64,000 nt of DNA from a virus. Shown one piece after another: positions 2 to 16,995 of this stretch. Positions within the stretch are counted from its first letter, which is position 1. Each line of letters opens with the position of its first letter. The position numbers and the translations under genes are program-made. The notes beneath the pieces are model-generated. The model made no database searches. It saw nothing but the letters and a program-made list of their open reading frames with translations, and was not told the origin of the DNA. Where the stretch lies: positions 5,713 through 69,712 of the IMG/VR virus record IMGVR_UViG_3300030098_000945; one strand, written 5' to 3'.

Positions 2-1459
2 GTACCGCTAGATCAAAGAGACAAAGCATTAGAAGAAGCAAAAAAAGATCCAAGATTACAACCAGATGATGTTCAAAAATTAATAACTTCTTTTAATGTT
101 AAAAAAACATCCATAGATCATAAGAATAGATCTAATGTTACTACTATGGTAGAAAATGTTAAAAAAGGATTTCCTTTAAGTCAAGCTGATTATGAGAATG
201 CTGTTAATATTGCAATCAATACAGAAGATCAAATAACTTTAAATAAATTAGAACAACTTGCAAAAGATGCAAATATTTACGCTCAGTTAGCAACCATGAG
301 TGTTGGCGAAATTGAAAATAGAAAAAATATTTTACTTGAATTTCAAAAAACAAAGGGATCTTTAAGTTTAGATGATACAAATAATTTAAGAATTACAACT
401 GAATATTTATCAAAATTAACAAGTGATTTAAACAAAGATCAACTAATGACAGCCAATGAAAGAAATATTGGTGTATCTATTCAAGATATTGGATTTGAAA
501 AATTATTAACAGGAGAATTAAAGCCAGAAGATTTTACAGAAAAAGTAAAACAAAGAATTGGAAATGCTTATGCCGTAGCAAATCATTATAAAAGGGATGT
601 TGTTTTTTTTACTAATAATGAAAAAAAAGCAATCCAAGCAGCATATCAACAAGCAGATACACCAGGTCAAATCATTAAATTAACAACGGCATTAGTTCAA
701 TCTTTTGGTATGGAAAGCGATAAGGCTTTTGCACAATTTAGTAAAGAAGATAGTTTTTTTGCACATATTGGAGGATTGGTTATGCAAACAGGCGGAGCTG
801 GAGATAATGTTAAGTTAGCTGTTGAAGGATTTTTATTAATGCAAGGTGAAGAAAATAAAAAAATATATTCTGTTAAAAACGAAGATAGAGCAAGTGTTGT
901 CGATGAATACAGCTCTGCTTTTTTAATGAACCGAGATACTCAAAATTCAACAATAGAGGCTGCAAATTATATTTATGCAGCTCAATTAAAAAATGCTGGT
1001 AAATCTGGTTTTGATAGTTTTGACAAATTTGCTTATGAGAAAGCATTTAAAATGGCAGCGGGTGCAACTTATGTAGCTGGAGTTATGGGATCTAAAAATT
1101 TTGATGCTTTTTACGGTGGCTTTGATGAACATAACGATAATAAAGTTTATATTCCAGGATGGTTACAAGAAGGTAAATTTGATGATGTTGTTAAAACATT
1201 AAAAGATCATCCAGAATTAATAGATATGGGTTCAACCAATGGTAAGGCTCCTGTTGCTATTAATGGAGAACTAATAGATGTATTTGCGGGTGATGCTCCA
1301 TATTTTATTAGTGTAGGTGATGGAGTTTATTTAATAGGTGTTGGTGATAATCCCAAAGATGTTACTGGTGAACCAAAGTATTTATTAAATAGTGATGGTG
1401 GATATTTCAAACTTGATCTCAATAAAATTAAAGGGGATCTACAACCTTATATACAATAA
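2..1459 (+). CDS. Internal virion (ejection) protein, 5'-truncated by window
   Basis: Frame is open from base 2 (the ATG at 146 is internal); large helical protein in the same position as 38478-40670. Confidence 0.65.
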   Translation, partial: VPLDQRDKALEEAKKDPRLQPDDVQKLITSFNVKKTSIDHKNRSNVTTMVENVKKGFPLSQADYENAVNIAINTEDQITLNKLEQLAKDANIYAQLATMSVGEIENRKNILLEFQKTKGSLSLDDTNNLRITTEYLSKLTSDLNKDQLMTANERNIGVSIQDIGFEKLLTGELKPEDFTEKVKQRIGNAYAVANHYKRDVVFFTNNEKKAIQAAYQQADTPGQIIKLTTALVQSFGMESDKAFAQFSKEDSFFAHIGGLVMQTGGAGDNVKLAVEGFLLMQGEENKKIYSVKNEDRASVVDEYSSAFLMNRDTQNSTIEAANYIYAAQLKNAGKSGFDSFDKFAYEKAFKMAAGATYVAGVMGSKNFDAFYGGFDEHNDNKVYIPGWLQEGKFDDVVKTLKDHPELIDMGSTNGKAPVAINGELIDVFAGDAPYFISVGDGVYLIGVGDNPKDVTGEPKYLLNSDGGYFKLDLNKIKGDLQPYIQ

Positions 1460-3972
1460 TGAGTATATTTTACGATACAAAAAACACAGAAACAATACAA
1501 CCATACGAAAGTTTAGCCAAAGGCAAAAGAACAGATTTTAGAGATAACTTTTCATCTGCTTGGGATGCTTTTACAAAAACTGAAATGATCTTATCTGAAA
1601 TAAACAATTTAGATGAGGCTTATGGTAATATGAATGAAATATTAACTAAAGCGGGTCATACTAATTTTATATCTCCAACTGATCCAGATAATTATATGGT
1701 GGATGATACAGAAGTACCACCTTCAAGAAGATCTTTAGAAGAAGCATATTGGAAACAAATTGCTGAAGTTATTGCACAAGATGAAAATTTAAAAAATCTT
1801 TTAGTTGAAGCTGGTTTAGATACCCAAGAAAATATGCACAAACTTATTGCAGAACAAAGTCATAGTGCTTGGAAAAATTTTGCAGATATTTCTGAAAGAG
1901 CTACAACAATGGGTAAAGTCGGTGGATTTACTGGTATAGCCTCTGGAGCATTTACAGATCCAGTAATGCTTGCAACGCTACCAATATCTATGATGTATTC
2001 TGTTCCAGCTAATTTTAGTAAAGCTGCTTGGAAAGTTGCAAAAATAGAAACAGTATTAGCTGGTATTGCCGAGACTGCTATACAATTAAAATCTCAACCT
2101 TATAGAAAAGAACTTGGTTTTGAAGATGCTGGTTTAGAAACTGGATTAAAAAATATTGCAATGGTTTCTCTTGCAGCTGGTACAATTTCACCAGCTTTGT
2201 TAGGAGTATTTAAAGCATTTGGTAAAGGTATTGAGGTTGGTAAAAAACATTTATTTAAACTATCTGATGAAGAGTTAAATACTGTTTCAAAAGAAATGGG
2301 AGAAATTAATCCTAAATTTAAAGATGAAACTTTAGATAATCATAAATTACCAGAAAAAGATAATCCTTTTCCAGACAATAGAGCTGGCAGAACAGAACAT
2401 AACGAAAGATTAAACGATACTTTAAAAGCAATTCAAAATGGAGAAGATGTAAATTTAGCAGCTCCTAGAAACCAAACAGTTCCAGATAATTTAGTTCCTC
2501 CAGGAAAAATTAAACCTGGAGAATTTTTTGATATTTTTGATAATGATGGAAATATTGTTAATGTTCAAGCTGTTGCAATAAGTAAAAAAACAGGAAGTAT
2601 TAAAATAAAATTAGCCGATGGTTCTGAAAGAGTTATATCTATAGATCCAAAATCTTCTGCTTTTCAAAGTATAAGAAATCCTAATTATGTAATTAGATCT
2701 GCTGGTTTAAATGCACAAGGTAAGACAGTTTCTCAATTAAAAAAAAAAGAATTAACACAATTAAGAAAAAAATTACAAGATAGAAAAAATCAAATGGAAA
2801 CTGAAGGCACGACTAATCAAGGTGCTTATAGAGATACATTGGAAGATTTAAACTCTATAGATTTTAACATCAATAAAGCTACAAACGAAACAAACTCTCC
2901 AAATATTAATAAAGCTAATTTTAATAAAAATGAAAGTAAGTTAGCTGAAGATTTAGAAAATGTTAAAGATTTTGATGTACCAAGTGAAGCAGCTTACAGA
3001 AATCAAGCCTTAAATAATGAAGTATCTATGTTTGACACATCTACTTCTTCTTCCATTAAAAGTGGAGCCGAGGCTGGTGCTGCTGCCAAAACATCGCCAA
3101 CAGTATTATCTGATAAACTCCAAGATTTAACTAAAGGATCCCAAAAAACAGACGCAACTCCAGTATCAGTTTTAGCCAAAGCTAATACTGTTCCACCACT
3201 ATTTCGTGGTTCTAAAACTAATAAAGTTGGTGATAAAAGTGCCATAACTAAAAAGGTAATATATCATAAATCCGATGATTTCAATACGATCTACAATACA
3301 TTATCTAAAAAAATTGAGGATGTTAAGAAAGAATTACAACCTATAGCAACAAAATATAATGGCGATTTAAAGGCAAGAGTAAAAGAGTTAAAAGAGTTAA
3401 ATAAAAAAACAAATAAAGGAATAAAAGCAGTGCATATTTCTGATTATTTGGGTGCTAGAATATCAACAGATACAATATTAGAGGCTAAACTAGCAGTAGC
3501 AGAAATTAATAAAAAATATAAAATTATTGGTGGTATTGATGATTTTTTAACTGATGCTGGCAGAGCTGGTAGTGAGTATAGAGCTATTCATATCCAGGCT
3601 TTAACTAATGATGGTTTTACATTTGAAATACAAATTAGAGTAAAAGATTTAGACCCATTAACAGAACAATCTCACACTATTTATAAAAAGAAAACATGGG
3701 CGGAAAAAGAATACACAGACGCAGAATATAATAAAATTGTAAAAGAAGAGGCGGAAATAAATAAAAAATTAAAAGCTAAATATTTTGAAATAAAAGATAA
3801 AGAATTTATTAAATTAAATAGCGATGATCCTTTAGATTTTCCAATACCTATCGGTCAAAGAGTAGATGAGGCTACAGGCGAAAAAGTAGCTCTAACTAAA
3901 ACAGCAAGAGAATTATTTGAAGAAGAAGGCAAAACTAAAACAATGTTAGAAAGATTGAAAGATTGCGTATGA
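1459..3972 (+). CDS. Internal virion (ejection) protein with C-terminal RelA/SpoT-family nucleotidyltransferase domain
   Basis: Hydrophobic GxxxG-rich N-terminal region (AFTDP) like 40670-41956; motifs RVK (~3376), DYLGAR (3442), YRAIH (3577), EIQIR (3625), SHTIYK (3670). Confidence 0.85.
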   Translation: MSIFYDTKNTETIQPYESLAKGKRTDFRDNFSSAWDAFTKTEMILSEINNLDEAYGNMNEILTKAGHTNFISPTDPDNYMVDDTEVPPSRRSLEEAYWKQIAEVIAQDENLKNLLVEAGLDTQENMHKLIAEQSHSAWKNFADISERATTMGKVGGFTGIASGAFTDPVMLATLPISMMYSVPANFSKAAWKVAKIETVLAGIAETAIQLKSQPYRKELGFEDAGLETGLKNIAMVSLAAGTISPALLGVFKAFGKGIEVGKKHLFKLSDEELNTVSKEMGEINPKFKDETLDNHKLPEKDNPFPDNRAGRTEHNERLNDTLKAIQNGEDVNLAAPRNQTVPDNLVPPGKIKPGEFFDIFDNDGNIVNVQAVAISKKTGSIKIKLADGSERVISIDPKSSAFQSIRNPNYVIRSAGLNAQGKTVSQLKKKELTQLRKKLQDRKNQMETEGTTNQGAYRDTLEDLNSIDFNINKATNETNSPNINKANFNKNESKLAEDLENVKDFDVPSEAAYRNQALNNEVSMFDTSTSSSIKSGAEAGAAAKTSPTVLSDKLQDLTKGSQKTDATPVSVLAKANTVPPLFRGSKTNKVGDKSAITKKVIYHKSDDFNTIYNTLSKKIEDVKKELQPIATKYNGDLKARVKELKELNKKTNKGIKAVHISDYLGARISTDTILEAKLAVAEINKKYKIIGGIDDFLTDAGRAGSEYRAIHIQALTNDGFTFEIQIRVKDLDPLTEQSHTIYKKKTWAEKEYTDAEYNKIVKEEAEINKKLKAKYFEIKDKEFIKLNSDDPLDFPIPIGQRVDEATGEKVALTKTARELFEEEGKTKTMLERLKDCV
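3003..3245 (-). CDS. Nested antisense 80-aa protein, candidate immunity/antitoxin for the RelA/SpoT domain
   Basis: Globular acidic sequence (VFWDPLVKSW...LMEEEV) while the sense frame here is an S/T/A/P/K linker; TTGAAA...TGATATATT promoter-like sequence just upstream. Confidence 0.65.
   Translation of the reverse strand: MALLSPTLLVLEPRNSGGTVLALAKTDTGVASVFWDPLVKSWSLSDNTVGDVLAAAPASAPLLMEEEVDVSNIDTSLFKA
3258..3284 (-). promoter_or_regulatory. Putative promoter of the nested antisense ORF
   Basis: Minus strand TTGAAA-tcatcggattta-TG-a-TATATT, 12 nt before the ATG at 3245. Confidence 0.45.
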
Positions 3973-6506
3973 GTAGTTTTAAACAATGTATTATTAATGG
4001 TTTTAAAGAAGGTTTAATTAGTGCTGAACAAGCTGATAAATTAAATAAAAATTTAGACGAAGTTACCGAATTTTATCAATTTAGAAAAGGGTTAAGCAAA
4101 TCAGAGGCGGAAAGAGCAGCTGCTAAAAAAACATACGATGAATTAAAAATAGAAGAAGCTAACAAATTAAGAATTACCTTATTACAAAAAGCAAAGATTG
4201 ATGAAATAACTACTTTATTTGCAACCTATAGAAATGCAAATGGTGAAATAGACATGGCTAATGCTTATAGATCTCTTTATGCCGTAGATCAACACGCTTT
4301 AACTCCAAATATAGAAAATCAAATTATTAATGAGGGAAATAAAGCAAATAAATTTATGGTAAATGTTTTAGAGCAAATGAGATATAAATTAGGTGGTAGG
4401 CAAACCAAACTTCAAAAAGCTACTTTAAGATTAGTGGTTAAAGAGCTAATGGGAGAAAATACTGGAAATGTAAATGCTAAACAATTAGCGGATGCCTGGA
4501 GACAAACAGCTGAACATTTAAGAAAAAGAGCCAATAGTTTTGGTATGAAAATATTATCAAGAAAAGATTGGGGATTACCACAATTACACGACACATTATT
4601 AGTTAAATCCGTTTCTAAAGAAGATTGGATTGATTTTATTTTACCTAAATTAGATTTAGATAAAATGGTTAATGAAACAACTGGTTTACCTTTTAATGAT
4701 AAAACAATTAGACAAGCATTAAGTGGAGTTTATGATAATATTTCAACAGAAGGAATGGCAACCTTTAAACCAGGAACATCTGCTTATGGTAGAGCTTTAC
4801 ATAATAGAAGATTAGATCATAGATTTTTAGCTTTTAAAAGTGCTGACGATTGGATGGAATACCAAACAAGATTTGGTTCTCCAGATCCATTTAAAACAAT
4901 GCTAGAGCATATCAACGGTATGTCGAGAGATATTGCTATGCTTAAAATACTTGGACCAAACCCAGACGCAACGCATACTTGGGCGTTAGGTATGATTAAA
5001 AAACAAATGAAAATTGATGCAGCTGCGGAGGCACAAGGTAAATTTAAAAGAAAAAAATTAAATAAATTTAGAAATGAAGAAGATAGAACTAATTGGATTA
5101 TAGAAAATATAAATAATTTATACGCACACCATAAAGGAACTTTACACAAACCTATTGATGGATTTTTTGGAAGAACTTTTGCGGCTTTAAGGCAGTTATT
5201 AACTTCTGCACAATTAGGAGGTGCTGCAATTATGGCAATTACTGATTTTCATTGGTCGAGAATGACTGCTAAATTTAACGGTTTACCAGCAACTAAAGCT
5301 AATGCAACAGCCGTAAAATTACTAGCTGAAGGGATTAAAAAAGATAAAGCTCTAGCAAGAACAGCAATTAGACTTGGATTAATAACTGAAAGTTGGAATA
5401 CTATTGCTGGTGTTCAAACTAGATACTTAAATGATGTAGAGGCTCCAGTTTGGTCTAAAAGAGTTTCTGATTTTGTATTAAGAGGATCTGGATTATCACA
5501 CATAACTCAATCTGGTAAATGGGCGTTTGGTATGACAGTAATGGGAGAGCTTGCAGAACAAAGCGGAAAATCATTTAATAAATTAGATCCAAAATTATCA
5601 GCACAATTAAAAAAATATGGCATAGGAGCTGATGAATGGGAAATTATTAGAACAACAAAATTATATGATGCTGGTGCAGATGAACCAACAATGATTGGTA
5701 AAGGTGCTACTTTTTTAAGACCAGACGATATTCATGCTAGAGCTGATTTAGATGAGGCAACAAGAGAATTTTTAACTACAAGGTTAATGACTTATGTTAC
5801 TAATGAAACTAACTTTGCTGTACCATCATCATCTGCAAAAGGTAGAGTAACTTTAGCTGGATCTTCTCAACCAGGTACATTTAAAGGGGAATTAATGAAC
5901 TCTGTTTTAATGTATAAAAACTTTCCAATAACATTAGGAATGACACATTTGAATAGAGGGTTTCAACAAAAAGGATTAATTGGTAAAGCCAAATATTTAG
6001 TACCTATGATTATTGGTGGTACTGTAATGGGATCTTTAGCTTATGAAATAAAACAAGTTGCAGCTGGTAAAAAACCAACTTCTCCAGAAAATATGAATAC
6101 TAGATATTGGATGAATGCTATGGTTTATGGTGGTGGATTAGGAATATTTGGTGATTTCTTATTTTCAGATCAAAATAGATATGGTGGATCTTTTAGTAAA
6201 ACATTAGCTGGACCAGTAGCATCTTTTATTGGGGATGCTATCATGTTAACATTTGGTAATCTTCAACAAGCATTAACTGGAGAAAAAACTAATGCTGGTA
6301 AAGAGCTTGCAGCATTTATTCAAAGATATACTCCTGGATCATCCCTTTGGTATACAAGATTAGCTTATGAAAGACTTATAATGGATACACTTGAAAAGTT
6401 AATAAATCCTAATTTTGACAAAGATAATAGAAGAAATATTAAAAAATTAAAGTCTCGAACTGGACAAGAATATTGGTGGAAACCAGGAGAAATAACACCA
6501 AATTAA
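3969..6506 (+). CDS. Large internal virion (ejection) protein
   Basis: Position before the tail fibre; C-terminal hydrophobic GGGLGIFGDF motif shared with 41956-44442. Confidence 0.75.
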   Translation: MSSFKQCIINGFKEGLISAEQADKLNKNLDEVTEFYQFRKGLSKSEAERAAAKKTYDELKIEEANKLRITLLQKAKIDEITTLFATYRNANGEIDMANAYRSLYAVDQHALTPNIENQIINEGNKANKFMVNVLEQMRYKLGGRQTKLQKATLRLVVKELMGENTGNVNAKQLADAWRQTAEHLRKRANSFGMKILSRKDWGLPQLHDTLLVKSVSKEDWIDFILPKLDLDKMVNETTGLPFNDKTIRQALSGVYDNISTEGMATFKPGTSAYGRALHNRRLDHRFLAFKSADDWMEYQTRFGSPDPFKTMLEHINGMSRDIAMLKILGPNPDATHTWALGMIKKQMKIDAAAEAQGKFKRKKLNKFRNEEDRTNWIIENINNLYAHHKGTLHKPIDGFFGRTFAALRQLLTSAQLGGAAIMAITDFHWSRMTAKFNGLPATKANATAVKLLAEGIKKDKALARTAIRLGLITESWNTIAGVQTRYLNDVEAPVWSKRVSDFVLRGSGLSHITQSGKWAFGMTVMGELAEQSGKSFNKLDPKLSAQLKKYGIGADEWEIIRTTKLYDAGADEPTMIGKGATFLRPDDIHARADLDEATREFLTTRLMTYVTNETNFAVPSSSAKGRVTLAGSSQPGTFKGELMNSVLMYKNFPITLGMTHLNRGFQQKGLIGKAKYLVPMIIGGTVMGSLAYEIKQVAAGKKPTSPENMNTRYWMNAMVYGGGLGIFGDFLFSDQNRYGGSFSKTLAGPVASFIGDAIMLTFGNLQQALTGEKTNAGKELAAFIQRYTPGSSLWYTRLAYERLIMDTLEKLINPNFDKDNRRNIKKLKSRTGQEYWWKPGEITPN

Positions 6507-6509
6507 TTA

Positions 6510-6580
6510 TAGACACTATGGATAAATTTTAATAAAGAGAAACATAGTGTAGGATTTTAATGCCTACAAATCACTTTCTC
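6510..6580 (+). promoter_or_regulatory. Conserved tail-fibre leader: TAGACA-N17-TAAAGA promoter plus GAGAAA..GTAGG/CCTAC..TTTCTC inverted repeat
   Basis: Same layout at 44450-44521 despite divergent upstream genes. Confidence 0.55.
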
Positions 6581-6600
6581 ACAACCTAAATATAAAAATT

Positions 6601-9195
6601 ATGACAATATCAAGTACAACTTTACGTAACTCATATAGTGGTAACGGATCCACGACTGAGTTTTCGTACACATTTCCGATTAATTCAACTTCAGAAATTT
6701 CTGTAATTGAAAGATCGGCTACTGGAACAGAAACAGTTAAATCAGAAGGATCTGGTTCTACTAACTATTCAATAGTTGACAATGGAGCTAGCGGTGGAAC
6801 GGTAACTATGGTTACAGCTCCCGCATCGGGAACTACTTTGGTTCTTTTAAGAAACACAACTTTAACGCAAGAAACAGATTATGTTGCAAATGATCCTTTT
6901 GGAGCTGAAACGCATGAAGATGCTTTGGATAAACTCCAAATGCAAAACCAAGAATTACAAGAAGAATTAGATAGATCATTTAAAGTTTCAAAAACAAATA
7001 CTATTACTTCAGCTGAATTTACAACATCTGCAACAGACAGAGCTAGTAAAACTTTAGGATTTGATAGTTCAGGAAACTTAACAACTGTTGCTGATTTCCT
7101 TCCAGCTGGAGGAGACAGCGCACAATTTACTTATTCAACAACTACAACAGATAGTGATCCGGGTTCAGGATATATTCGTTTTAACAACGCAACTCTTTCT
7201 TCTGCGACTATTGCTTATGTGGATGACAATGAAGCAAATGGAACTGATGTTTCAGCTTGGGTTCAAAGTTTTGATGATGTAACTGGTAATGCGACTAACA
7301 GAGGAAGAATTAGATTATCAAAAGCAAATACCTTAGATGTATGGCATGTTTGGAAAGTTTCAGGAGCTGTTACAGATGCTAGTGGTTATACAAAATTAGC
7401 TTTAACTTATATTGATGGAGCTGGTGCTTTAGCAGCAGATGATAAAGTATTTTTATCATTTACTGCATCTGGAGAAGATGGAGCAATTCCGGGTTACTAT
7501 TATAAATTTGATACTGGAACAAGTGATGCTGATCCGGGAGCTGGAGAGATTTCTTTTAACAACGGAACCTACGCATCTGTAACCGCAATTTATATTGACG
7601 ATGCTGATGCAAATGGAGTTACTACTCAAACCGATACGATTACTTGGGATGATAGCACTTCAACAATTAAAGGCTATATTCATATAGTTGATATTAACGA
7701 CAGCACTACATACGCAAGATTTTCTATAACTGGTAGTTCAACCGATGCTTCTGGCTATAATAAATTAGCTGTTACTCATTTGGTTTCAAATAATACTTTT
7801 TCTGCTGACGATGAGCTTTCAGTTCACTTTACAAGACAAGGAGATAAAGGAGATACTGGTGCAACTGGTTCTACTGGAAGCACAGGATCAACTGGCTCAA
7901 CTGGAGCAAGTGGAACTAACTCACAACTTTCAATGACTTGGAGTAGCTCAACTTCTGATGCTGATCCAGGTAGTGGTAAAATAGCTTTTAATCATGCAAC
8001 ACTTTCAAGCGTTTCAATTTTATATGTAGATGATGCAGACGATGCCTCTGCTGATATTTCTGGTTATGTTCAATCTTGGGATGATGTTTCAAACTCAACA
8101 GCAAGAGGAATTGTAACTATAACTAAAGAAGGAACTGCATCAACTTATGCAATCTTTAAAGTAAGTGGTGCTGTAACCGATGCTTCTGGTTATACAAAAG
8201 TTCCAGTAACTCATGTTGTATCCAATGGTTCATTTTCTAATACAGATGGAGTTGGAGTTCATTTTGGTTTTTCTGGTGCTGATACTTCTTTAGCTTATAA
8301 ATTAGAAGGTACTAATTTTAGTAATTCTTTATTAATTGGTCATTCAACAACAGGAACTTTAAGCTCTGCTGAAAAAAATACAGGAGTTGGTCTAGCCGCT
8401 TTAGATGCAATAACACAAGGTGATAAAAATGTAGCAGTTGGTTATTCATCTGGTTCATCCATAACTACAGGTAATAGAAATATGGTGTTTGGTAATGAAG
8501 CTGGTGATGGTTTAACAACTGGTAGTGATAATGTTAATATTGGAGATAGTGCTGCTTATTATAATGTTTCTGGTAGCGAAAATGTTGCTATAGGTAAAAG
8601 TGCTATGCAAGGTGCATCTGGTCAAAGTAATTCTTATAATATTGCTTTAGGAGTAGATGCTTTAAAAAATATAACTACTGGTGGTCGTAATATTGGAATT
8701 GGTTATCAATCTGGAGATAATATAACTTCTGGTTCTGGTAATGTAATGATTGGTGCTGGTATAGATTTAGGTTCTGCAACAGGAGCAAGACAATTAAAAA
8801 TTGCTGGTAATGATGGTTCAACAACTACGACTTGGATTGAAGGCAGTAGTGCTGGAGTAGTAACTTTTAATGCTGCTAATGTAACTCAACAAGCAATTAC
8901 ATCTTCATCAAATGCTGTAGCTTGGGATGCTTCTGCTAAACCAAATGCTTATCATCAAACAACTGAAAATACGACTTTTTCTGCACCAAGTAATGCAGTT
9001 GAAGGTGCATTTATTTGTTTAGAAATTAATTACAACGGATCGCATACGATTGGCTGGAATACAGTTTTTGAATTTGCAGCAAGTACAGAACCAACTGAAA
9101 CTGCAACAGATGGTAAAACCGATCTTCATGTCTTTAGATATAATGGCGCTGTTTGGCAAGAAGTAGGAAGAACATTAAATTTAAGTGAAAGTTAA
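6601..9195 (+). CDS. Tail fibre protein (three DPGxG repeats, short GXX repeat, YadA-like NxAxG head repeats)
   Basis: T7-fibre-like N-terminus (YSGNGSTTEFSYTF); homologue at 44541. Confidence 0.85.
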   Translation: MTISSTTLRNSYSGNGSTTEFSYTFPINSTSEISVIERSATGTETVKSEGSGSTNYSIVDNGASGGTVTMVTAPASGTTLVLLRNTTLTQETDYVANDPFGAETHEDALDKLQMQNQELQEELDRSFKVSKTNTITSAEFTTSATDRASKTLGFDSSGNLTTVADFLPAGGDSAQFTYSTTTTDSDPGSGYIRFNNATLSSATIAYVDDNEANGTDVSAWVQSFDDVTGNATNRGRIRLSKANTLDVWHVWKVSGAVTDASGYTKLALTYIDGAGALAADDKVFLSFTASGEDGAIPGYYYKFDTGTSDADPGAGEISFNNGTYASVTAIYIDDADANGVTTQTDTITWDDSTSTIKGYIHIVDINDSTTYARFSITGSSTDASGYNKLAVTHLVSNNTFSADDELSVHFTRQGDKGDTGATGSTGSTGSTGSTGASGTNSQLSMTWSSSTSDADPGSGKIAFNHATLSSVSILYVDDADDASADISGYVQSWDDVSNSTARGIVTITKEGTASTYAIFKVSGAVTDASGYTKVPVTHVVSNGSFSNTDGVGVHFGFSGADTSLAYKLEGTNFSNSLLIGHSTTGTLSSAEKNTGVGLAALDAITQGDKNVAVGYSSGSSITTGNRNMVFGNEAGDGLTTGSDNVNIGDSAAYYNVSGSENVAIGKSAMQGASGQSNSYNIALGVDALKNITTGGRNIGIGYQSGDNITSGSGNVMIGAGIDLGSATGARQLKIAGNDGSTTTTWIEGSSAGVVTFNAANVTQQAITSSSNAVAWDASAKPNAYHQTTENTTFSAPSNAVEGAFICLEINYNGSHTIGWNTVFEFAASTEPTETATDGKTDLHVFRYNGAVWQEVGRTLNLSES

Positions 9196-9210
9196 TAGGA
9201 GTTAAAATAT

Positions 9211-9831
9211 ATGTGGGGATTAGTACAAGATGGATCAATTACAAAATTTATAAATAAACCAAAAGGTTTAGTTATTGGCGATGTTCGTCATTCAAGAAAA
9301 ATATTTGAATTATGGAGTAAAGCAGAACTAGAAGCTATTGGAATTTATGAAGTAGAATTTGATAATTCTAATAAAAAAGATGAGCAATGGTATATTAACA
9401 CCAATCAATCTTTTGCTTTTGCTGATGGAAAAATTACAGCAAGTTATGGTTCAGCTACAGCTAAAGCTCATGCTGATATTTTATGGACAGAACAAGACAA
9501 AACAGATGGTTTAATACCAGATGATAAAGATGTAGGCGATGTTGCTGTCAAAGGATTAAAAACAGTTTTAATTGAAAATATAAAAAAACAAGCTGCTGGA
9601 ATATTACAAGATACAGATTGGTACATAACTAGAAAAGCAGATGCTGGAACAGCAGTACCAAGTTCAATCACTACTCATAGAGCAGCGGTTAGAACAAAAG
9701 CCGCTGAACAAGAAACTCAAATTACAAACGCAGCAGATACACCAGCTCTTGAAACTTTATATACTTATACAAGACAAGAAGATGGATCAGTTACTAGACC
9801 ATTAGGCGAACTACCAACATTGGAGAGTTAA
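9211..9831 (+). CDS. Tail fibre assembly/chaperone-like protein
   Basis: LQDTDWYITRKA...R motif typical of tail assembly chaperones; homologue at 46883. Confidence 0.65.
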   Translation: MWGLVQDGSITKFINKPKGLVIGDVRHSRKIFELWSKAELEAIGIYEVEFDNSNKKDEQWYINTNQSFAFADGKITASYGSATAKAHADILWTEQDKTDGLIPDDKDVGDVAVKGLKTVLIENIKKQAAGILQDTDWYITRKADAGTAVPSSITTHRAAVRTKAAEQETQITNAADTPALETLYTYTRQEDGSVTRPLGELPTLES

Positions 9832-11282
9832 TGCCTTTAATTATACCAGCTAATACTTTATCTGGCGGATATGAAGTAGCCAACTCATGTAGGTTTAATG
9901 ATGGTGATAGTGCCAGTATGACTAAAACACCTGGCTCAAATGGTAGTCAAACAACATTTACATTTAGTTGTTGGGTAAAAAGAAGTGCTTTAGGATCAGC
10001 TCAAAATATTATAACAGCTAGATATTCTGGTGGAACATCAGGTAGTAGATATTCTTATCTGCAATTTGATGGAGATGATAAAATAGTTGTTTTTGGTGGA
10101 GTTTATTCAACAAGTTCCACATCTCAATCTTTTCAAAAGCAATCTCCTGGTGTTTATAGAGATTGTTCTGCCTGGTATAACATTTGTTGGATTCATGATA
10201 CAACAGAAGATTCTGCTATTAATAGAGATAAACTTTTTGTAAATGGAACCCAAGTTACTTGGAATACTGGTTATACTTATGATGGAGATGCCGCAGAAGA
10301 TGCTGCAACATTTTTTAATGTAACAACCTCTCCAATATATATTGGTCAATATGATAGCTCTAATTATTTTGATGGATATATGGCAGAAGTTTGTTTCATT
10401 GATGGTTCAGCTTTAGCTGCAACTTCTTTTGGAGAATTTGACGAAGATAGTCCGACAATTTGGAAACCGAAAGATGTATCAGGATTAACTTTTGGTACTA
10501 ATGGTTTTTATTTAGATTTTGAAGATAGTAGTAATTTAGGTAATGATGCAAATGGTGGAACAGATTTTACAGAATCTAATCTAGCAGCAACAGATCAAGC
10601 TACAGATACACCGACTAATAATTTTGCAACTTGGAATCCTTTAGCACAAACACCACAAAAAGGAACAATAGCAGAAGGAAATTTAGAATATGATAGATCA
10701 GGATCAAGTGATAATTGGGTAACCATTGCTTCAACAATAGCTGCTACAGCTGGAAAATGGTATTATGAATATAAAATTATTGATGGTGGAAGTAGTGCTG
10801 GTAATGGTTCATTAGTAGGATTTTTAGATTACAATACATCTGCTTTTCAACATACAGCTAATGATGCTATAACAAATGCAGGAGAATATGCTTGGTATGG
10901 TGCTTCTGGAAATCTTTACATAAATGGCACAGATGTTGCACAAGTAGATAGTTACACCGATGATGATATAGTTATGGTAGCAATGGATTTAGATAATTCA
11001 AAGGCGTATTGGGGTAAAAATGGCACATGGATAGATTCAGGAGATCCAACATCAGGAGCAACAGGAACTGGTGCTAGGGATATTGCAAATGTTTCTTCTG
11101 GTACTTTTGCTTTTGCAGTTTCACATAGAGAAGGTGGTAATGGTCAAGCAAACTTTGGCAATCCACCATTTAGTATCTCATCAGGAAACGCAGATGATAA
11201 TGGATATGGAAATTTTGAATATGATGTTCCTACTGGTTATCTTGCGTTATGTACGAAGAATTTAGGAAGTGATGGAGGATAA
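9831..11282 (+). CDS. Concanavalin A/LamG + SPRY-like lectin tail protein
   Basis: TFSCWVKR, WYNICW, FDGYMAEV and GKWYYE motifs. Confidence 0.8.
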   Translation: MPLIIPANTLSGGYEVANSCRFNDGDSASMTKTPGSNGSQTTFTFSCWVKRSALGSAQNIITARYSGGTSGSRYSYLQFDGDDKIVVFGGVYSTSSTSQSFQKQSPGVYRDCSAWYNICWIHDTTEDSAINRDKLFVNGTQVTWNTGYTYDGDAAEDAATFFNVTTSPIYIGQYDSSNYFDGYMAEVCFIDGSALAATSFGEFDEDSPTIWKPKDVSGLTFGTNGFYLDFEDSSNLGNDANGGTDFTESNLAATDQATDTPTNNFATWNPLAQTPQKGTIAEGNLEYDRSGSSDNWVTIASTIAATAGKWYYEYKIIDGGSSAGNGSLVGFLDYNTSAFQHTANDAITNAGEYAWYGASGNLYINGTDVAQVDSYTDDDIVMVAMDLDNSKAYWGKNGTWIDSGDPTSGATGTGARDIANVSSGTFAFAVSHREGGNGQANFGNPPFSISSGNADDNGYGNFEYDVPTGYLALCTKNLGSDGG

Positions 11283-12347
11283 ATGGCAGTTTATACATCA
11301 ATAGACAATCCAGAATTATATTTTCAGTGTAAGCTCTATACTGGAAATGGAAGCACAAATGCTATTACTTTAGATGGCGATGAAAATATGCAACCAGATT
11401 TAGTTTGGGTTAAACGAAGAAATGGTGCTACTAAATCAATGTTATTTGATAATGCAAGATCAGCTAATTTTTTACAAACAGAATCAAGTGATGCTGAACA
11501 AGATGGTGCAGATTATTTTGTTTCATTAGATAGTGATGGTTTTACTTTTGAGGGTTCAGATAACTCTAATAATGCAAGTTCACAAACGTATGTAGCTTGG
11601 TGCTGGAAAATGGCTAATGGAACAGCTTCAAATTCTAATGGAACAAATATTACTTCAACTGTTTCTGCCAATACAACTGCTGGACAATCTATCGTTTCTT
11701 ATAGTGGATCTGGAACAACATCAGATACAGTTGGACATGGTTTAAGTTCATTGGATTTTTTAATTGTAAAAAGTAGAGGTGAAAATGATAGTTGGTTTGT
11801 AAAACATAAAGATTTAGCTTCAAGTAAAAATTTGAATTTAAACCAAACTGTAGCAGAAACAGATGTTACTTCAGCTTATAGCGAAGGTGGTTTATCTAAT
11901 TTATCTGGTAATACTTTTGGATTTTTAGATGGAACTTCAGATGCAAATGCTGTTAATGAAAGTTCCGAAGCGCATATCGCATATTGCTTTAAAAGTGTTC
12001 AAGGTTATTCAAAATTTGGCTCATTCACAGGAAATGGAAATGCTTCAGGAACATTTGTTTTCTGTGGCTTTCGACCAGCTTGGATACTTATAAAAAATTC
12101 GTCAAGTGTTACTTCATGGACTTTGTACGATAATAAAAGACCAGGCTTTAATGAAGATAATGCTTATTTATTGCCTGATGCTAGTGATAATGAATTAAGT
12201 GATAAAGATATTGATTTACTTTCTAATGGTTTTAAACCAAGAACAAGTAATAGTGCTTTGAACACATCAGGAGATACATATATCTTTATGGCGTTTGCAG
12301 AAGCACCATTTGTCAACTCTAAAGGCGTTCCAGCCAATTCTCGTTGA
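11283..12347 (+). CDS. Tail-associated beta-rich structural protein
   Basis: YTGNG repeats, PDLVWVK, YVAWCW, GFRPAWILIK, MAFAEAPF; homologue at 48948. Confidence 0.7.
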   Translation: MAVYTSIDNPELYFQCKLYTGNGSTNAITLDGDENMQPDLVWVKRRNGATKSMLFDNARSANFLQTESSDAEQDGADYFVSLDSDGFTFEGSDNSNNASSQTYVAWCWKMANGTASNSNGTNITSTVSANTTAGQSIVSYSGSGTTSDTVGHGLSSLDFLIVKSRGENDSWFVKHKDLASSKNLNLNQTVAETDVTSAYSEGGLSNLSGNTFGFLDGTSDANAVNESSEAHIAYCFKSVQGYSKFGSFTGNGNASGTFVFCGFRPAWILIKNSSSVTSWTLYDNKRPGFNEDNAYLLPDASDNELSDKDIDLLSNGFKPRTSNSALNTSGDTYIFMAFAEAPFVNSKGVPANSR

Positions 12348-12387
12348 TTAAATAAAATAACAAAATTAATAAGAGGAGAAGTACACT

Positions 12388-12600
12388 ATGAAGGTGCTAC
12401 TAATTATGATTATGTGTAGCGCAGTTCAGAATGAGTGTCTACCTCCACATCAAATGCCAACAACTTATGACAGCTACTATGATTGTTTACAAGCTGGCTA
12501 CCAGGAGGCAATTTTAAAACAAACTGAAATAGGAAAAGCGGATACTAATGAACATAAAATATTCATTAGGTTCACTTGTAAGGGAACTTATGAAACGTAA
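12388..12600 (+). CDS. Small Cys-containing exported protein
   Basis: Good SD (GAGGAG); conserved at 50148. Confidence 0.7.
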   Translation: MKVLLIMIMCSAVQNECLPPHQMPTTYDSYYDCLQAGYQEAILKQTEIGKADTNEHKIFIRFTCKGTYET

Positions 12601-12826
12601 AAAAAAATCAATTTTATCTAATCTTGAAGAAACAAATGGAATAAGAATATCTTATCATGAAAAGGTTTGTGCAGAGAGGATGAAAACTTTGTTTAAAGCA
12701 ATAGATGAAATGAGAAAAGATATTAAAGAATTAAAAACTTTTATGAATGTAGGAAAAGGTGCTGCCGCAATAATAATCTTTATTGGGGGTTTACTTGGCT
12801 CGATTTTCTACTTCTTCACGAAATAG
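12590..12826 (+). CDS. Coiled-coil + C-terminal TM protein (HEKVCAER family, lysis region)
   Basis: Conserved at 50350; start reassigned to ATG 12590. Confidence 0.65.
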   Translation: MKRKKKSILSNLEETNGIRISYHEKVCAERMKTLFKAIDEMRKDIKELKTFMNVGKGAAAIIIFIGGLLGSIFYFFTK

Positions 12827-13088
12827 AACTACAGCTGCTAAAGGTTTAAGTAGTGAACTATTAGCTGCCGCAAAGTTTGCCAAAGATCCAAACTTAATTG
12901 TGTTCACACCAGTTGGTGCTGGACCCATAGATATATTAACTTTGAATATTAAAACGGGGGAGTACCAAGGTTATGATGTCAAGACAAGAAATTACCGTAA
13001 AGATGGTTCTAAAATTAATAGACCAAGAACCAGGGAACAAAAAAGACTAGGTGTTAAAATTTTTAATTTTGACCCAGAAAAGGATTGA
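12783..13088 (+). CDS. PD-(D/E)XK-like endonuclease
   Basis: E...GPIDIL...DVKT pattern; conserved at 50546; start uncertain. Confidence 0.55.
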   Translation: MGVYLARFSTSSRNRTTAAKGLSSELLAAAKFAKDPNLIVFTPVGAGPIDILTLNIKTGEYQGYDVKTRNYRKDGSKINRPRTREQKRLGVKIFNFDPEKD

Positions 13089-13094
13089 AGAGTT

Positions 13095-13532
13095 ATGGAT
13101 ACATATAACGAGCTTAAACAAGACATTAAAACCCACGAAGGTTACAGAGATCATATATACAAAGATAGCCTGGGTATTCCTACTATCTTTTGGGGTCATA
13201 TGGTTTTACCTACCGATGATTATGTTGAAGGTGTTAATTACAGTATTGAAGATGCTGAGAAGTGTTTTAATAAAGATTTTAATATTGCTCTACAAGCTGC
13301 TGAGAAGTTAATTGGCGATATAGAAGTTAATCATATTCAGAAATGCGTAATCATTGAATGCGTGTATCAACTTGGTGGACCAAGGTTTTCAAAATTTAAA
13401 AAGTTTTGGCAAGCTATGAAAGATGGTGATATGGAAAAAGCTGCCGATGAAATGATAGATAGCAGATGGCACAAACAAACACCTAGTAGATGTGAGAAAG
13501 CTGCTGCTAAAATGAGGAGCAGTAATAAATGA
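13095..13532 (+). CDS. Endolysin, T4-lysozyme/GH24 family
   Basis: HEG-x-YKDSLGIPTIFWGH (E-x8-D-x5-T triad), MIDSRWHKQTP. Confidence 0.9.
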   Translation: MDTYNELKQDIKTHEGYRDHIYKDSLGIPTIFWGHMVLPTDDYVEGVNYSIEDAEKCFNKDFNIALQAAEKLIGDIEVNHIQKCVIIECVYQLGGPRFSKFKKFWQAMKDGDMEKAADEMIDSRWHKQTPSRCEKAAAKMRSSNK

Positions 13533-13912
13533 TACAATTTTTAGGTTTCTTAAAAAATCCTCTGGTTAAATTTGTAGCAAATAAAACCATGGGTGCAATT
13601 ACTCATAAGCTAGAAAAAGATAAAATTATTAAAGCCAAAGAATTAGAAGCTGCTAATAACCTGGATGTTAAAAAGGTTGAGGTGCAGCTTGAACAAGTAA
13701 GACAACAACAAAATTCGTGGAAAGACGAATGGCTCGTATTATTTTTTTCCATAATCTTTGGATTACATTTTACACCTTGGACAGTCTCCTGGTGTGATAG
13801 AGCTTGGGATGCTCTTCAAAAAGCAGATCCAATGTTTTGGTATATAATTTTAACAATGGTAGGAGCGAGCTTTGGTGTAACTACCATGAACAAGTTAGGT
13901 AAAAAGAAATGA
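13529..13912 (+). CDS. Putative holin
   Basis: Follows endolysin; SWKDEW motif plus two TM segments and a basic C-terminus. Confidence 0.7.
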   Translation: MIQFLGFLKNPLVKFVANKTMGAITHKLEKDKIIKAKELEAANNLDVKKVEVQLEQVRQQQNSWKDEWLVLFFSIIFGLHFTPWTVSWCDRAWDALQKADPMFWYIILTMVGASFGVTTMNKLGKKK

Positions 13913-14196
13913 CAATAACTAAATCAGACTTTGATCCGCATTGCTTTGGCGGTCATTATCAAGAACCACCAGATACTTTACACTTTCAGTTTGAAGGTGC
14001 TAGATGCGATAACTATGTTTACAGATACATATTAGTTGACAAGTTTAGACCCAATAAGATTGATGCAAGAAGTAAAAAGACAGAGGAAGAAAAAGATAAA
14101 TCTGGAAAAGAGATAGCTGCTAGTTACTTACCTTTGGTTTTAACAGAGGAAGTAAAACCAACTTTAATAGATAAGATAAAAAATATTTTTTTTTAA
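13909..14196 (+). CDS. Hypothetical protein (YRYxLVDKF family)
   Basis: Conserved at 51674; paralogue at 34028. Confidence 0.7.
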   Translation: MTITKSDFDPHCFGGHYQEPPDTLHFQFEGARCDNYVYRYILVDKFRPNKIDARSKKTEEEKDKSGKEIAASYLPLVLTEEVKPTLIDKIKNIFF

Positions 14197-14696
14197 TGAT
14201 TGACCCAAAAGAAGATGAGTTATCTCATTTTGCACATTGGTATTTAAACTCTGGAGAAGTTGATAAAGTTTATACACCTATAAAAAATGGTTTATTATTT
14301 ATAGAAGGTGTAAGTGGAATTGTTTTATATAGAAATAAACCTTTTCAAGTTGAGCTTTTTATTTGTCAACCTAATCTGGTTATACCAGAACATACACATC
14401 CAGACGTAGATAGTTACGAATGTTTTTTGTATGGAATGAAATTTACTCATTCTGGTAATACAGCTATTGATATTGAACAAGCATTAGAGGAACAAAATGG
14501 TTATCCAATTAATGCTTATCAAACCATAAGAGTTAAACCAAACGATCTTCATGGTGGAACTGCATCAAAATATGGTGGAGCTTTTATATCAATTCAGCAT
14601 TGGTTAAATGACGTAGATCCAACTCATGTTAGTTCAAATTGGGATGGAAAATCTATGGGTAAAAATCATTCGGAACAAGCGGGATTGAATGGCTAG
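14196..14696 (+). CDS. Cupin-fold protein (unit A only)
   Basis: IPEHTHPDVDSYE...LHGG metal-binding cupin motifs. Confidence 0.65.
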   Translation: MIDPKEDELSHFAHWYLNSGEVDKVYTPIKNGLLFIEGVSGIVLYRNKPFQVELFICQPNLVIPEHTHPDVDSYECFLYGMKFTHSGNTAIDIEQALEEQNGYPINAYQTIRVKPNDLHGGTASKYGGAFISIQHWLNDVDPTHVSSNWDGKSMGKNHSEQAGLNG

Positions 14697-14823
14697 AGTT
14701 AAGTTTACTCACTTTGTACCAAGGGATAAACCACCTAAAAGACCAGGGGTACATAAAAAAAATTTAAACAAATCTGAAAAGAGAAACAAAAAACTTACTA
14801 GATATAAGGGTCAAGGCAGATGA
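14689..14823 (+). CDS. 44-aa basic peptide ending YKGQGR
   Basis: Translated by hand; stop overlaps next start; counterpart at 51960. Confidence 0.7.
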   Translation: MARVKFTHFVPRDKPPKRPGVHKKNLNKSEKRNKKLTRYKGQGR

Positions 14824-15182
14824 AGATAAACGAGAATACAAATATTTCTTTACCAGTTAGAAATCTTTTAGCTTTGTGTGCGGCTGTAGCTTTGGGAATT
14901 TTCGCATATACAGAAATAACAGCCAGGATTACGAGCTTAGAAACATCAAGAGAATTACACCAAGCAGATTTATTAAAGAAGAGCGAGCAGTTACCAACAG
15001 ATCAAGAACAGTTTATGCTGCTTGAACACATAGCGGGTCAAGTAGAAAATATAGAAAAAGAGATGGAGGGTATGAGAAACAATACTGTAAATCTTAATAG
15101 AGCTATGGAAGATATAAAACAAATTGAACAAACTTTAGAAATTTTAAAAGACAAAGTAAGAGATAATGGTAACCACCAATGA
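14820..15182 (+). CDS. TM + coiled-coil protein
   Basis: Conserved at 52088. Confidence 0.7.
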   Translation: MKINENTNISLPVRNLLALCAAVALGIFAYTEITARITSLETSRELHQADLLKKSEQLPTDQEQFMLLEHIAGQVENIEKEMEGMRNNTVNLNRAMEDIKQIEQTLEILKDKVRDNGNHQ

Positions 15183-15430
15183 TGGAAAAAATATTAACAT
15201 TATTGGTTGGATTATTAATTGCTTTAGGAGGCTGGTCGCTTTCCAGAACATTTGAACTATCTACGGGTCAAGCAGTTCTTGAAGATAAAGTTGAAAGATT
15301 AGAAATGCAGCTAACATTAATAGATCAGAAGATGGATGAAATGTTTGATATGGATGAAGAAATTATGAAACAACACGAACAATTATTTAAAAAATTAGAA
15401 AATTCAAACACAGGGTATAGTTATAACTAA
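15179..15430 (+). CDS. TM + coiled-coil protein
   Basis: ORF coupled to both neighbours. Confidence 0.6.
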   Translation: MMEKILTLLVGLLIALGGWSLSRTFELSTGQAVLEDKVERLEMQLTLIDQKMDEMFDMDEEIMKQHEQLFKKLENSNTGYSYN

Positions 15431-15645
15431 TGATAGAAACAGTAATAGCTCTTTTATTAATTGTAGATCACGAAATAAAAGAACACAGAATACAAGATAG
15501 TTTAAGTAAATGCTTAAAAGGGAAGAGGGTAGCCGAGAGGCAATTAAAATCTGGAGATAGAGTTCAATATAAATGTATTAAATCTAAAGCAGAGATAGAA
15601 GTTTATATGGGAGAAAAAAAAATAACTAAATTAATAATGGAATAA
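15430..15645 (+). CDS. Hypothetical protein (CLKGKR motif)
   Basis: Conserved at 52447. Confidence 0.7.
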   Translation: MIETVIALLLIVDHEIKEHRIQDSLSKCLKGKRVAERQLKSGDRVQYKCIKSKAEIEVYMGEKKITKLIME

Positions 15646-15821
15646 TGGATATAAAAGATAAAATAGTTGGATTAGCTTTAGTAGCTTTGGTTTCACTTAT
15701 TGGTTGGAACCTTCACGCTACTTGGGATTTAAAATCTGAATTAATGAAAATTCAACAAGATCAAAAAGTCTTACACAAGAAAATGAATAAAGTTTTAAAA
15801 AAAGTTAAAAAGAAAAAATGA
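15645..15821 (+). CDS. 58-aa TM + coiled-coil protein (i-spanin-like candidate)
   Basis: Translated by hand, MDIKDKIVGLALVALVSLIGW...; TAATG/ATGA coupling. Confidence 0.55.
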   Translation: MDIKDKIVGLALVALVSLIGWNLHATWDLKSELMKIQQDQKVLHKKMNKVLKKVKKKK

Positions 15822-15982
15822 AGTATTGGATAATAGTTATAGTCTATACTTTATTATTTTTAACAGCTTGTGTTTATAAGTTAGAGCCAAATCAAACTAC
15901 TGTTGAATATGGTACTTCTGAAAATGGTAAAGATAAAACAAGTAAAAGTATTAAACAAACTTTTAAATGGAATAAGCAATGA
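15818..15982 (+). CDS. 54-aa lipoprotein (o-spanin or exclusion candidate)
   Basis: MKYWIIVIVYTLLFLTA-C lipobox. Confidence 0.6.
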   Translation: MKYWIIVIVYTLLFLTACVYKLEPNQTTVEYGTSENGKDKTSKSIKQTFKWNKQ

Positions 15983-16095
15983 TTGATAAAATTTTATTAA
16001 AATTTTTTGGCGGTATAGATAAAGTAACCGAATGGCTCTTTGCCTGGCAAGCTCCTAGATGCAAATGCAAAAACAGAAAAAAAAGACGTGGGTAA
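15979..16095 (+). CDS. 38-aa peptide (MIDK..FFGGID..RCKC)
   Basis: Conserved at 52670-52783. Confidence 0.6.
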   Translation: MIDKILLKFFGGIDKVTEWLFAWQAPRCKCKNRKKRRG

Positions 16096-16256
16096 AACCA
16101 GTTCAATATGTAATGAATATTGGACCATGTAGGTATTGCAAAAAGGAAATGGAAAATACTGAAAGTTTTGTAGCTTTTTTAGATAAAACTAAAGCTCATT
16201 ATCAATGTATGAAAGAAGATGATAACCAGAGAGCTTTGGATAAGACTTTTGAATAA
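16059..16256 (+). CDS. Small zinc-finger protein (CxxC...HxxC)
   Basis: CRYC and HYQC; conserved at 55135. Confidence 0.7.
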   Translation: MQMQKQKKKTWVKPVQYVMNIGPCRYCKKEMENTESFVAFLDKTKAHYQCMKEDDNQRALDKTFE

Positions 16257-16412
16257 TTAATTTAATTTTATTTTAGGGTCTTTTTTTAATAAAATAAAAG
16301 CAGTATTTCTTATTTGTAATGCTTTTAATTTAGATCTTTCTTCTACATCTTTTTTCATTCTTTGGTGTATTTCTCTTACTTGTTCAGCAGTATAAATTTT
16401 TTTTTTCTTCAT
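16257..16412 (-). CDS. 51-aa basic protein downstream of tRNA-Pro (unit A only)
   Basis: Translated by hand, MKKKKIYTAEQVREIHQRM...; TTGATC..TATATT upstream. Confidence 0.5.
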   Translation of the reverse strand: MKKKKIYTAEQVREIHQRMKKDVEERSKLKALQIRNTAFILLKKDPKIKLN

Positions 16413-16450
16413 AAATTAATAATAATATAAAAATTATAAAGATCAAATAG

Positions 16451-16527
16451 TGGTCTGGGTGGGAGGATTTGAACCTCCGATCCTCTGCTCCCAAAGCAGA
16501 TGCGATACCAGGCTTCGCTACACCCAG
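16451..16527 (-). tRNA. trnP: tRNA-Pro(TGG), complete with encoded CCA
   Basis: Acceptor CTGGGTG/CACCCAG-A-CCA, anticodon arm TCTGC-TT-TGG-GA-GCAGA, T arm GGAGG-TTCAAAT-CCTCC. Confidence 0.95.
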
Positions 16528-16539
16528 ACAATTTTAAAT

Positions 16540-16766: not shown

Positions 16767-16776
16767 AATTATTATA

Positions 16777-16799: not shown

Positions 16800-16819
16800 A
16801 ATCTTTCTTAACTTATTAT

Positions 16820-16987: not shown

Positions 16988-16995
16988 ATTTTAAA

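Follow-up and report, generated by a model that had tools for sequence, protein, structure and literature searches.

What does a RelA/SpoT-homologue (RSH) synthetase domain do inside a structural protein of a podovirus? The question is raised by P0001, an 837-residue protein encoded in a 64,000-nucleotide stretch of viral DNA (the window), which corresponds to bases 5713–69712 of the 69,712-bp IMG/VR virus record IMGVR_UViG_3300030098_000945. The reading that we favor, with a probability of roughly 45%, is that P0001 is a late protein, packed in the virion and ejected, which carries a tethered RSH domain for alarmone synthesis in freshly infected cells. The gene, as given by the list of open reading frames (ORFs) and its translation, and the domain in question are located as follows:

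1459..3972, + strand: gene for P0001, putative cargo-carrying internal-virion (ejection) protein, 837 residues
3274..3822, + strand: RSH synthetase domain, residues 606–788 (folded domain, residues 37–219 of the structural model)

Identity and Fold of the RSH Domain

P0001 matches the Pfam family RelA_SpoT (PF04607) over residues 640–745 (nt 3376–3693) with 36.7 bits (E 5.8e-9), compared to a curated gathering cut-off of 27 bits. The remaining rows of the Pfam scan are two sub-threshold chance hits, and a six-frame search of the whole record with PF04607 finds the family in one place only (42.3 bits, E 4.6e-12). The match is far above chance. The synthetase motifs occur in the order R640-V-K642, D662-Y-L-G-A-R667, Y707-R-A-I-H711, E723-I-Q-I-R727 and S738-H-T-I-Y-K743, and the C-terminus of the protein reads ...LKDCV (residues 833–837). 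An initial annotation of this DNA had recognized all four synthetase motifs followed by SHxxYK, had placed the domain at 3280–3800 without a hydrolase domain, and had named the Pfam family as a check. The motifs are borne out by the translation from R640 to K743, the proposed interval agrees almost exactly with the folded domain at nt 3274–3822, the family match is present, and no hydrolase (HD) domain is found in P0001 by the Pfam scan or elsewhere in the record.

In RSH synthetases, the basic pair (RxK; here R640/K642), the Mg-binding Asp (DxxGxR; Asp662), and the YxxxH and ExQ motifs supply the catalytic residues. The full set (R640, K642, D662, R667, Y707, H711, E723 and Q725) is complete in 118 of 119 family domains, whose proteins share 49–98% identity overall, as well as in 52 of 61 remote RSH domains. 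This conservation bears on the idea of a remnant that has decayed to catalytic inactivity and serves only as a structural spacer of the core protein. The low identity of the domain to solved enzymes (17–20%) is the one observation in its favor, and retention of the catalytic set across the family and its remote relatives makes such a remnant highly improbable. Consequently, the P0001 synthetase domain is very likely to be catalytically competent. The family variants at the P0001 motifs are G[AT]R, [AR]IH and I[RS]. Residues 709 (nt 3583–3585) and 727 (nt 3637–3639) co-vary perfectly, with R709/S727 in 67 and A709/R727 in 52 of the 119 domains and no third combination; this may reflect an arginine shifted between the third and fourth synthetase motifs, or simply two clades.

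The fold of the domain was predicted with AlphaFold for residues 570–837, using 41 aligned sequences as input. The model has a predicted local distance difference test (pLDDT) score of 79.6, with a core above 90. A Foldseek search with the domain model retrieved 68 PDB chains at E ≤ 1e-3, and the rows shown, at E ≤ 2.9e-5, are all RSH synthetases. The nearest structures are (p)ppGpp synthetases; the structure comparison scores that follow are 11.9 for Tas1, 11.9 for CapRel, 11.7 for Rel and 11.2 for an exported synthetase, and FaRel has 6.4. A profile built from 44 remote RSH-bearing relatives retrieves 18 PDB sequences at E ≤ 6e-5, all of which are (p)ppGpp synthetases (YwaC, 5.2e-12), and toxSAS entries, as well as CapRel, Tas1 and FaRel, are absent from this search at E ≤ 10. 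The domain most resembles the (p)ppGpp-making small alarmone synthetases RelQ and RelP, and GDP/GTP is the predicted acceptor.

Alternatively, the domain could be injected in the same way and function as an adenosine 3'-pyrophosphokinase similar to Apk and Tas1, making (p)ppApp and depleting ATP as a true toxin, directed at the infected cell or at rival phages. Two points count against the GDP/GTP assignment and hence against the reading that we favor. The structural preference for RelQ/RelP over Tas1/CapRel amounts to less than 3 Z units, and motif letters do not fix specificity, as swapping them failed to convert Apk2 (PMC12226406); the acceptor cannot be read from the sequence. The motifs DYLGAR, YRAIH and EIQIR nevertheless carry the RSH-type letters (xxR, xxH, IR), not those of the Apk2 type (RYT, GxN, YH; PMC12226406), and the PDB profile search yields (p)ppGpp synthetases only. 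Furthermore, the P0001 gene is accompanied by no IapK/Aph1-like immunity gene, HD_4 hydrolase or small intergenic ORF, and unopposed bactericidal depletion of ATP in the producing cell would be costly, also for a temperate phage. Taken together, these results make an adenosine 3'-pyrophosphokinase quite unlikely. A further alternative, in which the domain would transfer pyrophosphate to tRNA, is less likely still.

Modular Architecture and Cargo Exchange

P0001 is modular: its N module contains two hydrophobic helices and is followed by a linker, a single exchangeable cargo and a tail of about 48 residues. The regions that surround the RSH domain are:

1459..2478, + strand: conserved all-alpha N module, residues 1–340
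1918..2226, + strand: two hydrophobic stretches, residues 154–187 and 230–256, candidate membrane-inserting helices
2485..2676, + strand: small SH3/Tudor-like beta-barrel, residues 343–406
2776..3258, + strand: polar low-complexity linker, residues 440–600, with a conserved FDVP..AAYRNQ patch
3826..3969, + strand: conserved C-terminal tail, residues 790–837, beta-hairpin plus helix, ending ...DCV

The AlphaFold2 model of the N module has pLDDT values of 84–96 over residues 21–80 and 91–170, and of 54–92 over residues 171–250. The N module has no relative in the PDB, and no PDB fold match was obtained for residues 1–420. The hydrophobic stretches reach values of up to 1.19 and 1.89 in 19-residue Kyte-Doolittle windows, and this region of P0001 is also matched by the protein that occupies the same gene slot in locus L006 (residues 96–258). 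The linker is a flexible segment of about 150 residues, with model pLDDT below 50 at its end; the conserved patch is read from the translation and from near-invariant alignment columns. The Cys of the tail is nearly invariant.

The exchange of cargo is evident from a scan of 1.84 billion representative sequences, which gave 395 matches at E ≤ 1e-3. The N module is common to 81 of the best 150 of these, which were classified: 58 contain the N module only and 23 contain both modules, while 42 contain the RSH module only (from about residue 520–600 on) and 27 are short fragments. Nine proteins of the best 150 retain the N module and the last 40–66 residues, including the ...DCV tail, and have no RSH domain. 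The recurrence of the tail in relatives without the domain indicates that the RSH domain is an inserted cargo, which upholds the earlier supposition that it had been inserted ahead of a conserved tail.

Other enzymes occupy the same position. Among 53 scanned N-module proteins without RSH, Zeta_toxin is found just before the tail in 12 (8 of 9 in one set and 4 of 44 in another), and a Pesticin lysozyme, an SLT domain and a GGDEF cyclase are found in one protein each. The Zeta_toxin kinase version is present in the orthologous slot of podoviruses with a guanine-cytosine (GC) content of 52–54%, as proteins of 1080–1108 residues (locus L056, 8001–11243; locus L057, 8001–11327). The 1108-residue protein of L057 shares 24% identity with P0001 in the N module and 48% in the tail, and the downstream neighbor is 41–42% identical. 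The RSH module also occurs in other contexts, as 36 of 44 remote RSH-bearing proteins pass Pfam RelA_SpoT. Extra domains among these 44 include ddrB-ParB (7), SLT (2), and Pesticin, LPD38, GH108 and methylase (1 each), and remote relatives of 1000–3900 residues join the RSH module to ddrB-ParB, SLT, LPD38 and methylase domains. Some of the representative matches have 1,800–3,900 residues, a size and make-up that places them among the polyvalent proteins of Iyer et al.

The conserved tail may serve in docking. A weak contact is predicted between the tail (residues 774–837) and the 847-residue protein encoded downstream, with an interaction score (ipSAE) of 0.37 as the median of three runs and 0.00 for the best control; at least 80% of the contacts agree between runs, and the pLDDT of the partner is 66. 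Of 80 solved complexes, 58 reach the mark used to call a contact, as do 2 of 110 mismatched pairs; at scores of 0.60 or below, the mark was reached by only 7 of the 80 solved complexes and by both of the mismatched pairs.

Gene Neighborhood and the Putative Ejection-Protein Slot

The P0001 gene lies in a block of structural genes, of which the window contains:

2..1459, + strand: 3' part of the upstream 698-residue structural gene, which begins in the record before the window; constant upstream neighbor in related loci
3963..6506, + strand: downstream 847-residue virion structural protein (phrog_684 'virion structural protein', E 3.2e-166)
6601..9195, + strand: tail fiber gene closing the block (phrog_13893/1640 tail protein)

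At its start, the P0001 gene shares 1 base with the stop of the upstream gene, and at its end it shares 10 nt with the start of the downstream gene. The order of genes in the record is tail-tube A (phrog_394), tail-tube B (phrog_376), a 160-residue phrog_308 'internal virion protein', a 150-residue protein, the 698-residue protein, P0001, the phrog_684 protein and the fiber. An identical order is found in 28 of 28 IMG/VR carrier loci, wherever flanks exist, and in a contig of 9.5 kb that binning assigned to a Candidatus Pelagibacter metagenome-assembled genome (MAG); no small ORFs lie between the block genes in the 28 loci. The downstream protein is 67–79% identical across 25 of these loci, 98–99% identical in two (L002 and L027) and 47% identical in the truncated copy of L051. 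Within the upstream gene, a 437-residue ORF with an ATG start (window 146–1459) has a weak match to phrog_992 'head protein' (E 7.6e-11).

In more distant relatives, found via their phrog_684 neighbor, the protein in the P0001 slot has 802, 604, 539, 507 or about 424 residues. The version in locus L008 has an SLT transglycosylase; its PHROG match is phrog_342 ('internal virion protein with endolysin domain'), which is also matched by the 428-residue slot protein of a second phage unit in the same record. BLASTP of P0001 against the 428-residue and 757-residue proteins of the second unit gives nothing better than E 0.8, and the downstream 847-residue protein is 25% identical to its copy in that unit. 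The variation of the slot proteins, together with the SLT/phrog_342 protein of L008 and the phrog_342-like protein of the second unit, suggests that the slot is the enzymatic-cargo position of an ejection-protein block. The initial annotation had assigned the gene to a T7-like internal-virion slot. The internal-virion block, running from tail-tube B to the fiber, is indeed present; the phage is not T7-like overall, as it has no polymerase-sized ORF and its portal is of the HTVC010P type. The observation made in that annotation is confirmed, and its interpretation is partly supported: the nature of the domain, its insertion as cargo and the place of the gene are borne out, and an injected enzyme that resets the host at the start of infection is a prediction.

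The companions of the gene have also been surveyed. HD_4, MazG and NUDIX genes are found neither in this record nor in four to five carrier records. There are no IapK/Aph1-like immunity genes beside P0001, the neighbors being large overlapping structural genes in 28 of 28 loci. A toxSAS-type antitoxin gene or domain and a defense-island context were likewise not encountered in this structural-gene context, and no PADLOC model matched.

These results lead to the main rival of the reading that we favor, in which the enzyme is not delivered and acts late in the producing cell, in host shut-off, nucleotide re-routing or the timing of lysis, such that the gene position reflects late co-expression only. 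It is the main rival because nothing restrains the enzyme there; with no immunity gene, activity is expected at the site of its synthesis. P0001 matches no PHROG family, and a Zeta-toxin cargo could aid lysis from within; Iyer et al. propose wall weakening (PMC5512222). Action in the producer does not readily explain why conservation of the N module and tail does not depend on the cargo, or why the cassette co-varies with both structural neighbors. Furthermore, the block genes overlap and are translationally coupled, and lysozyme or SLT cargo in the same scaffold makes sense only for entry from outside. On balance, action confined to the producing cell is unlikely.

Distribution of P0001

A homology search yields 214 homologues of P0001 at E ≤ 1e-3. 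Among the 120 listed, identity is 49–98% and nearly all are full length; a precomputed PF04607 match exists for 119 of these 120, and two homologues carry the Joint Genome Institute (JGI) label 'ppGpp synthetase/RelA/SpoT-type nucleotidyltransferase'. P0001 itself is assigned to no family of PHROG, NCBIfam or PADLOC. The protein atlas places it in unnamed viral clusters only, and its LPD22, LPD14 and 'P22 gp16' rows (0.79–0.85) are mere leads.

The gene (window 1459–3972) is present, with little change, in nine seawater or plankton metagenome runs, in which 79–87% of its sampled words are found; these runs represent at least seven studies dated 2017–2025, beyond the possible source samples. 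Contigs of the independent seawater runs X10 and X12 show 1–4 differences to nt 2113–3990. Contigs from RNA libraries reach only 3486–3636 and 3699–3849 (X19) and 2423–2586 (X20), and are not proof of transcription. A tblastn search of P0001 against 50,697 phage records gives one match, to Vibrio phage ZCVPP1, which is limited to residues 143–267. Consequently, no cultured phage with the fusion is found in this collection.

Phage, Host and Lysogeny

The phage is a temperate HTVC010P-like marine podovirus in which T7-like gene order is confined to the tail/core module. No polymerase-sized ORF, for RNA or DNA polymerase, is found in the phage, and it is therefore not an autographivirus. The portal is 56% identical to those of the pelagiphages HTVC010P, Greip and Skadi. 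The record encodes an integrase, a helix-turn-helix (HTH) repressor and a lysozyme, a set that fits temperate subgroup II of the HTVC010P-type phages as described in the main text of PMC8477408. Of 10 carrier records, 5 were found to have an integrase, as were all 3 of the records that are at least 90% complete. The sole link of the RSH domain to lysogeny is that its carriers are temperate; the second phage unit of the record is likewise temperate, yet lacks the RSH domain.

Two distinct but related phages make up the record, arranged head to tail as about 1.8 units with a period of approximately 38 kb. The units match each other at 6509–25275 and 44449–64000, and their shared parts have 67–89% nucleotide identity; single-unit relatives are 37.8–39.9 kb long. 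The ejection cassette is wholly different between the units (698, 837 and 847 residues compared to 757, 428 and 835 residues). In the second unit, TerS, TerL, portal, a protease-like protein, capsid and tail tubes are annotated, with other ORFs interspersed. The record may represent two prophages in tandem or an assembly chimera, and no read contig settles the junction. Beside the integrase of the second unit lies one further feature:

16451–16527, - strand: full-length tRNA-Pro(TGG)

No piece of this tRNA recurs at the second unit boundary. A 187-residue ORF adjoining the integrase (18632–19195, - strand) matches LPD29 (PF18847) with E 5.5e-7; LPD29 otherwise occurs in large polyvalent proteins and is here a solo gene of the lysogeny module. 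A 354-residue protein (11283–12347, + strand) has a full-length match to DUF7483 (E 3.7e-101) and also matches PHROG tail-fiber and virion families. Together with the preceding 483-residue gene, it resembles the halves of a 1227-position PHROG profile.

Proposed Mechanism

The architecture of P0001 and its position suggest a mechanism of delivery. First, a few copies of P0001 would be packed in the capsid core via the N module and tail. Next, these copies would be ejected with the DNA at infection, and the hydrophobic N module and the two neighboring proteins would help to build a conduit across the envelope. Once in the cytoplasm, the tethered synthetase would transfer pyrophosphate from host ATP to a purine nucleotide, of which GDP/GTP is the likeliest. 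Finally, a shut-down resembling the stringent response would be imposed before any phage gene is expressed. Action at entry is favored because of the two hydrophobic helices (residues 154–187 and 230–256) and the lysozyme-type alternative cargo. SAR11 cells are small. That few enzyme molecules would suffice is plausible given this small size and the published turnover numbers of related enzymes. For SaEAS, the published turnover number (kcat) is 95,000–190,000 per min, at which a few very fast molecules suffice.

Several further points weigh against the delivery reading. P0001 matches no PHROG family, and a sequence search of the 698-residue and 847-residue neighbors against the PDB returned nothing relevant. 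The complex predicted for the tail and its neighbor is only a weak pass. As no immunity or hydrolase gene accompanies it, the enzyme would meet no opposition late in infection in the cell that produces it, and might exert its effect there. A SAR11 host is assigned because the portal resembles those of pelagiphages, the GC content is low and one contig was binned to a MAG. In addition, the tRNA-Pro finds matching tRNA-Pro genes in 37 of the 81 genomes from the family to which the Pelagibacter MAG belongs, at only 78–87% identity (35 of them at 81–87%), and the MAG itself is unmatched, so that the host is not pinned to SAR11.

A broader proposal builds on this mechanism. The podoviral ejection-protein family would be a platform for polymorphic effectors, in which synthetase, Zeta-type kinase, GGDEF or lysozyme cargo is combined with a conserved N module and a conserved docking tail. 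In abundant temperate SAR11-type phages, it would inject a (p)ppGpp synthetase without immunity, setting a stringent-like state at infection in a very small, slow-growing cell and thereby tilting the choice between lysis and lysogeny or pre-empting defenses. As a whole, this proposal is rather doubtful.

Comparison with Known Systems

The T7 protein gp16 is ejected. Proteins of the T7 gp16 type, which have an N-terminal lytic transglycosylase (phrog_342), share with P0001 the position in the tail/core module and the presence of one enzymatic domain. P0001 has no detectable similarity to them in sequence or fold, and the putative target of its enzyme is cytoplasmic nucleotides, not peptidoglycan. 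The RelQ and RelP enzymes (SAS1/SAS2) are stand-alone cellular proteins of about 200–255 residues, whereas the P0001 domain is embedded in a phage structural protein and is 17–20% identical to them. [quoted passage not shown] The carriers of delivered synthetases described in the accessible literature are the Sec signal, LXG, XopAD, MuF, DUF4157 and Rhs/PAAR, and the P0001 carrier is none of these.

Among phage proteins, the initial annotation had pointed to RelA/SpoT domains in MuF and polyvalent proteins, and these are indeed published. In its main text, the study of polyvalent proteins by Iyer, Burroughs, Anand, de Souza and Aravind (2017) describes RelA/SpoT domains in phage-type polyvalent proteins and in MuF, proposes that they are injected with the DNA, lists RelA/SpoT as a phage-only domain and predicts that it triggers an alarmone-like response on entry (PMC5512222). 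According to the same text, polyvalent proteins are large, virion-delivered proteins with several effector domains, whereas P0001 has one enzymatic domain in 837 residues. The relevant passages name Spirochaetes, epsilon-proteobacterial (pro)phages and MuF, and not podoviral internal-virion proteins or pelagiphages; the main text never uses the terms 'gp16', 'ejection' or 'internal virion', and the supplementary files may list the fusion (PMC5512222).

The P0001-type carrier, the exchange with Zeta and GGDEF cargo, the missing immunity genes and the occurrence in HTVC010P-type phages were not found in searches of the open-access literature, where supplementary gene tables may list the fusion. 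Among pelagiphage papers that mention ppGpp, those examined discuss only MazG, and the words SpoT, pyrophosphokinase, zeta and toxin have 0 occurrences in the main text of the HTVC010P-type paper (PMC8477408). Thus, phage-borne RelA/SpoT domains in MuF and polyvalent proteins and the idea of injection are already known, and the podoviral ejection-protein carrier appears to be a new addition to them.

Also similar in design are the MuF-Apk2 polymorphic toxins of temperate phages (S. pneumoniae, Mannheimia and Pasteurella prophages). Similar to P0001, these have a RelA/SpoT-type pyrophosphokinase on the C-terminal side of a head-internal protein, with a conserved carrier, variable cargo and the Zeta-toxin kinase as alternative cargo. 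In contrast to MuF-Apk2, P0001 has no Phage_Mu_F match, and its carrier belongs to a podoviral ejection block, contains hydrophobic helices and continues after the cargo into a conserved tail. P0001 also has motifs of the RSH type and lacks the genes for the IapK binder and the Aph1 hydrolase, both of which provide immunity in MuF-Apk2 (PMC12226406). The hosts and habitats differ as well, as the P0001 phage is marine, low-GC and SAR11-phage-like. MuF-Apk2 has been characterized biochemically, and its authors describe its role in physiology as unknown (PMC12226406).

Provided that injection takes place, the phage would rewrite the central starvation signal of its host before any phage gene is read, and would do so in a phage group infecting the most abundant bacteria of the ocean. 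Alarmone synthetases borne by phages would then have, in addition to MuF, a second and independent carrier in P0001, and podoviral core proteins would swap toxin-type cargo in the manner of polymorphic toxins. The P0001 family provides a concrete handle on the role of RSH and Zeta domains in phage head proteins.

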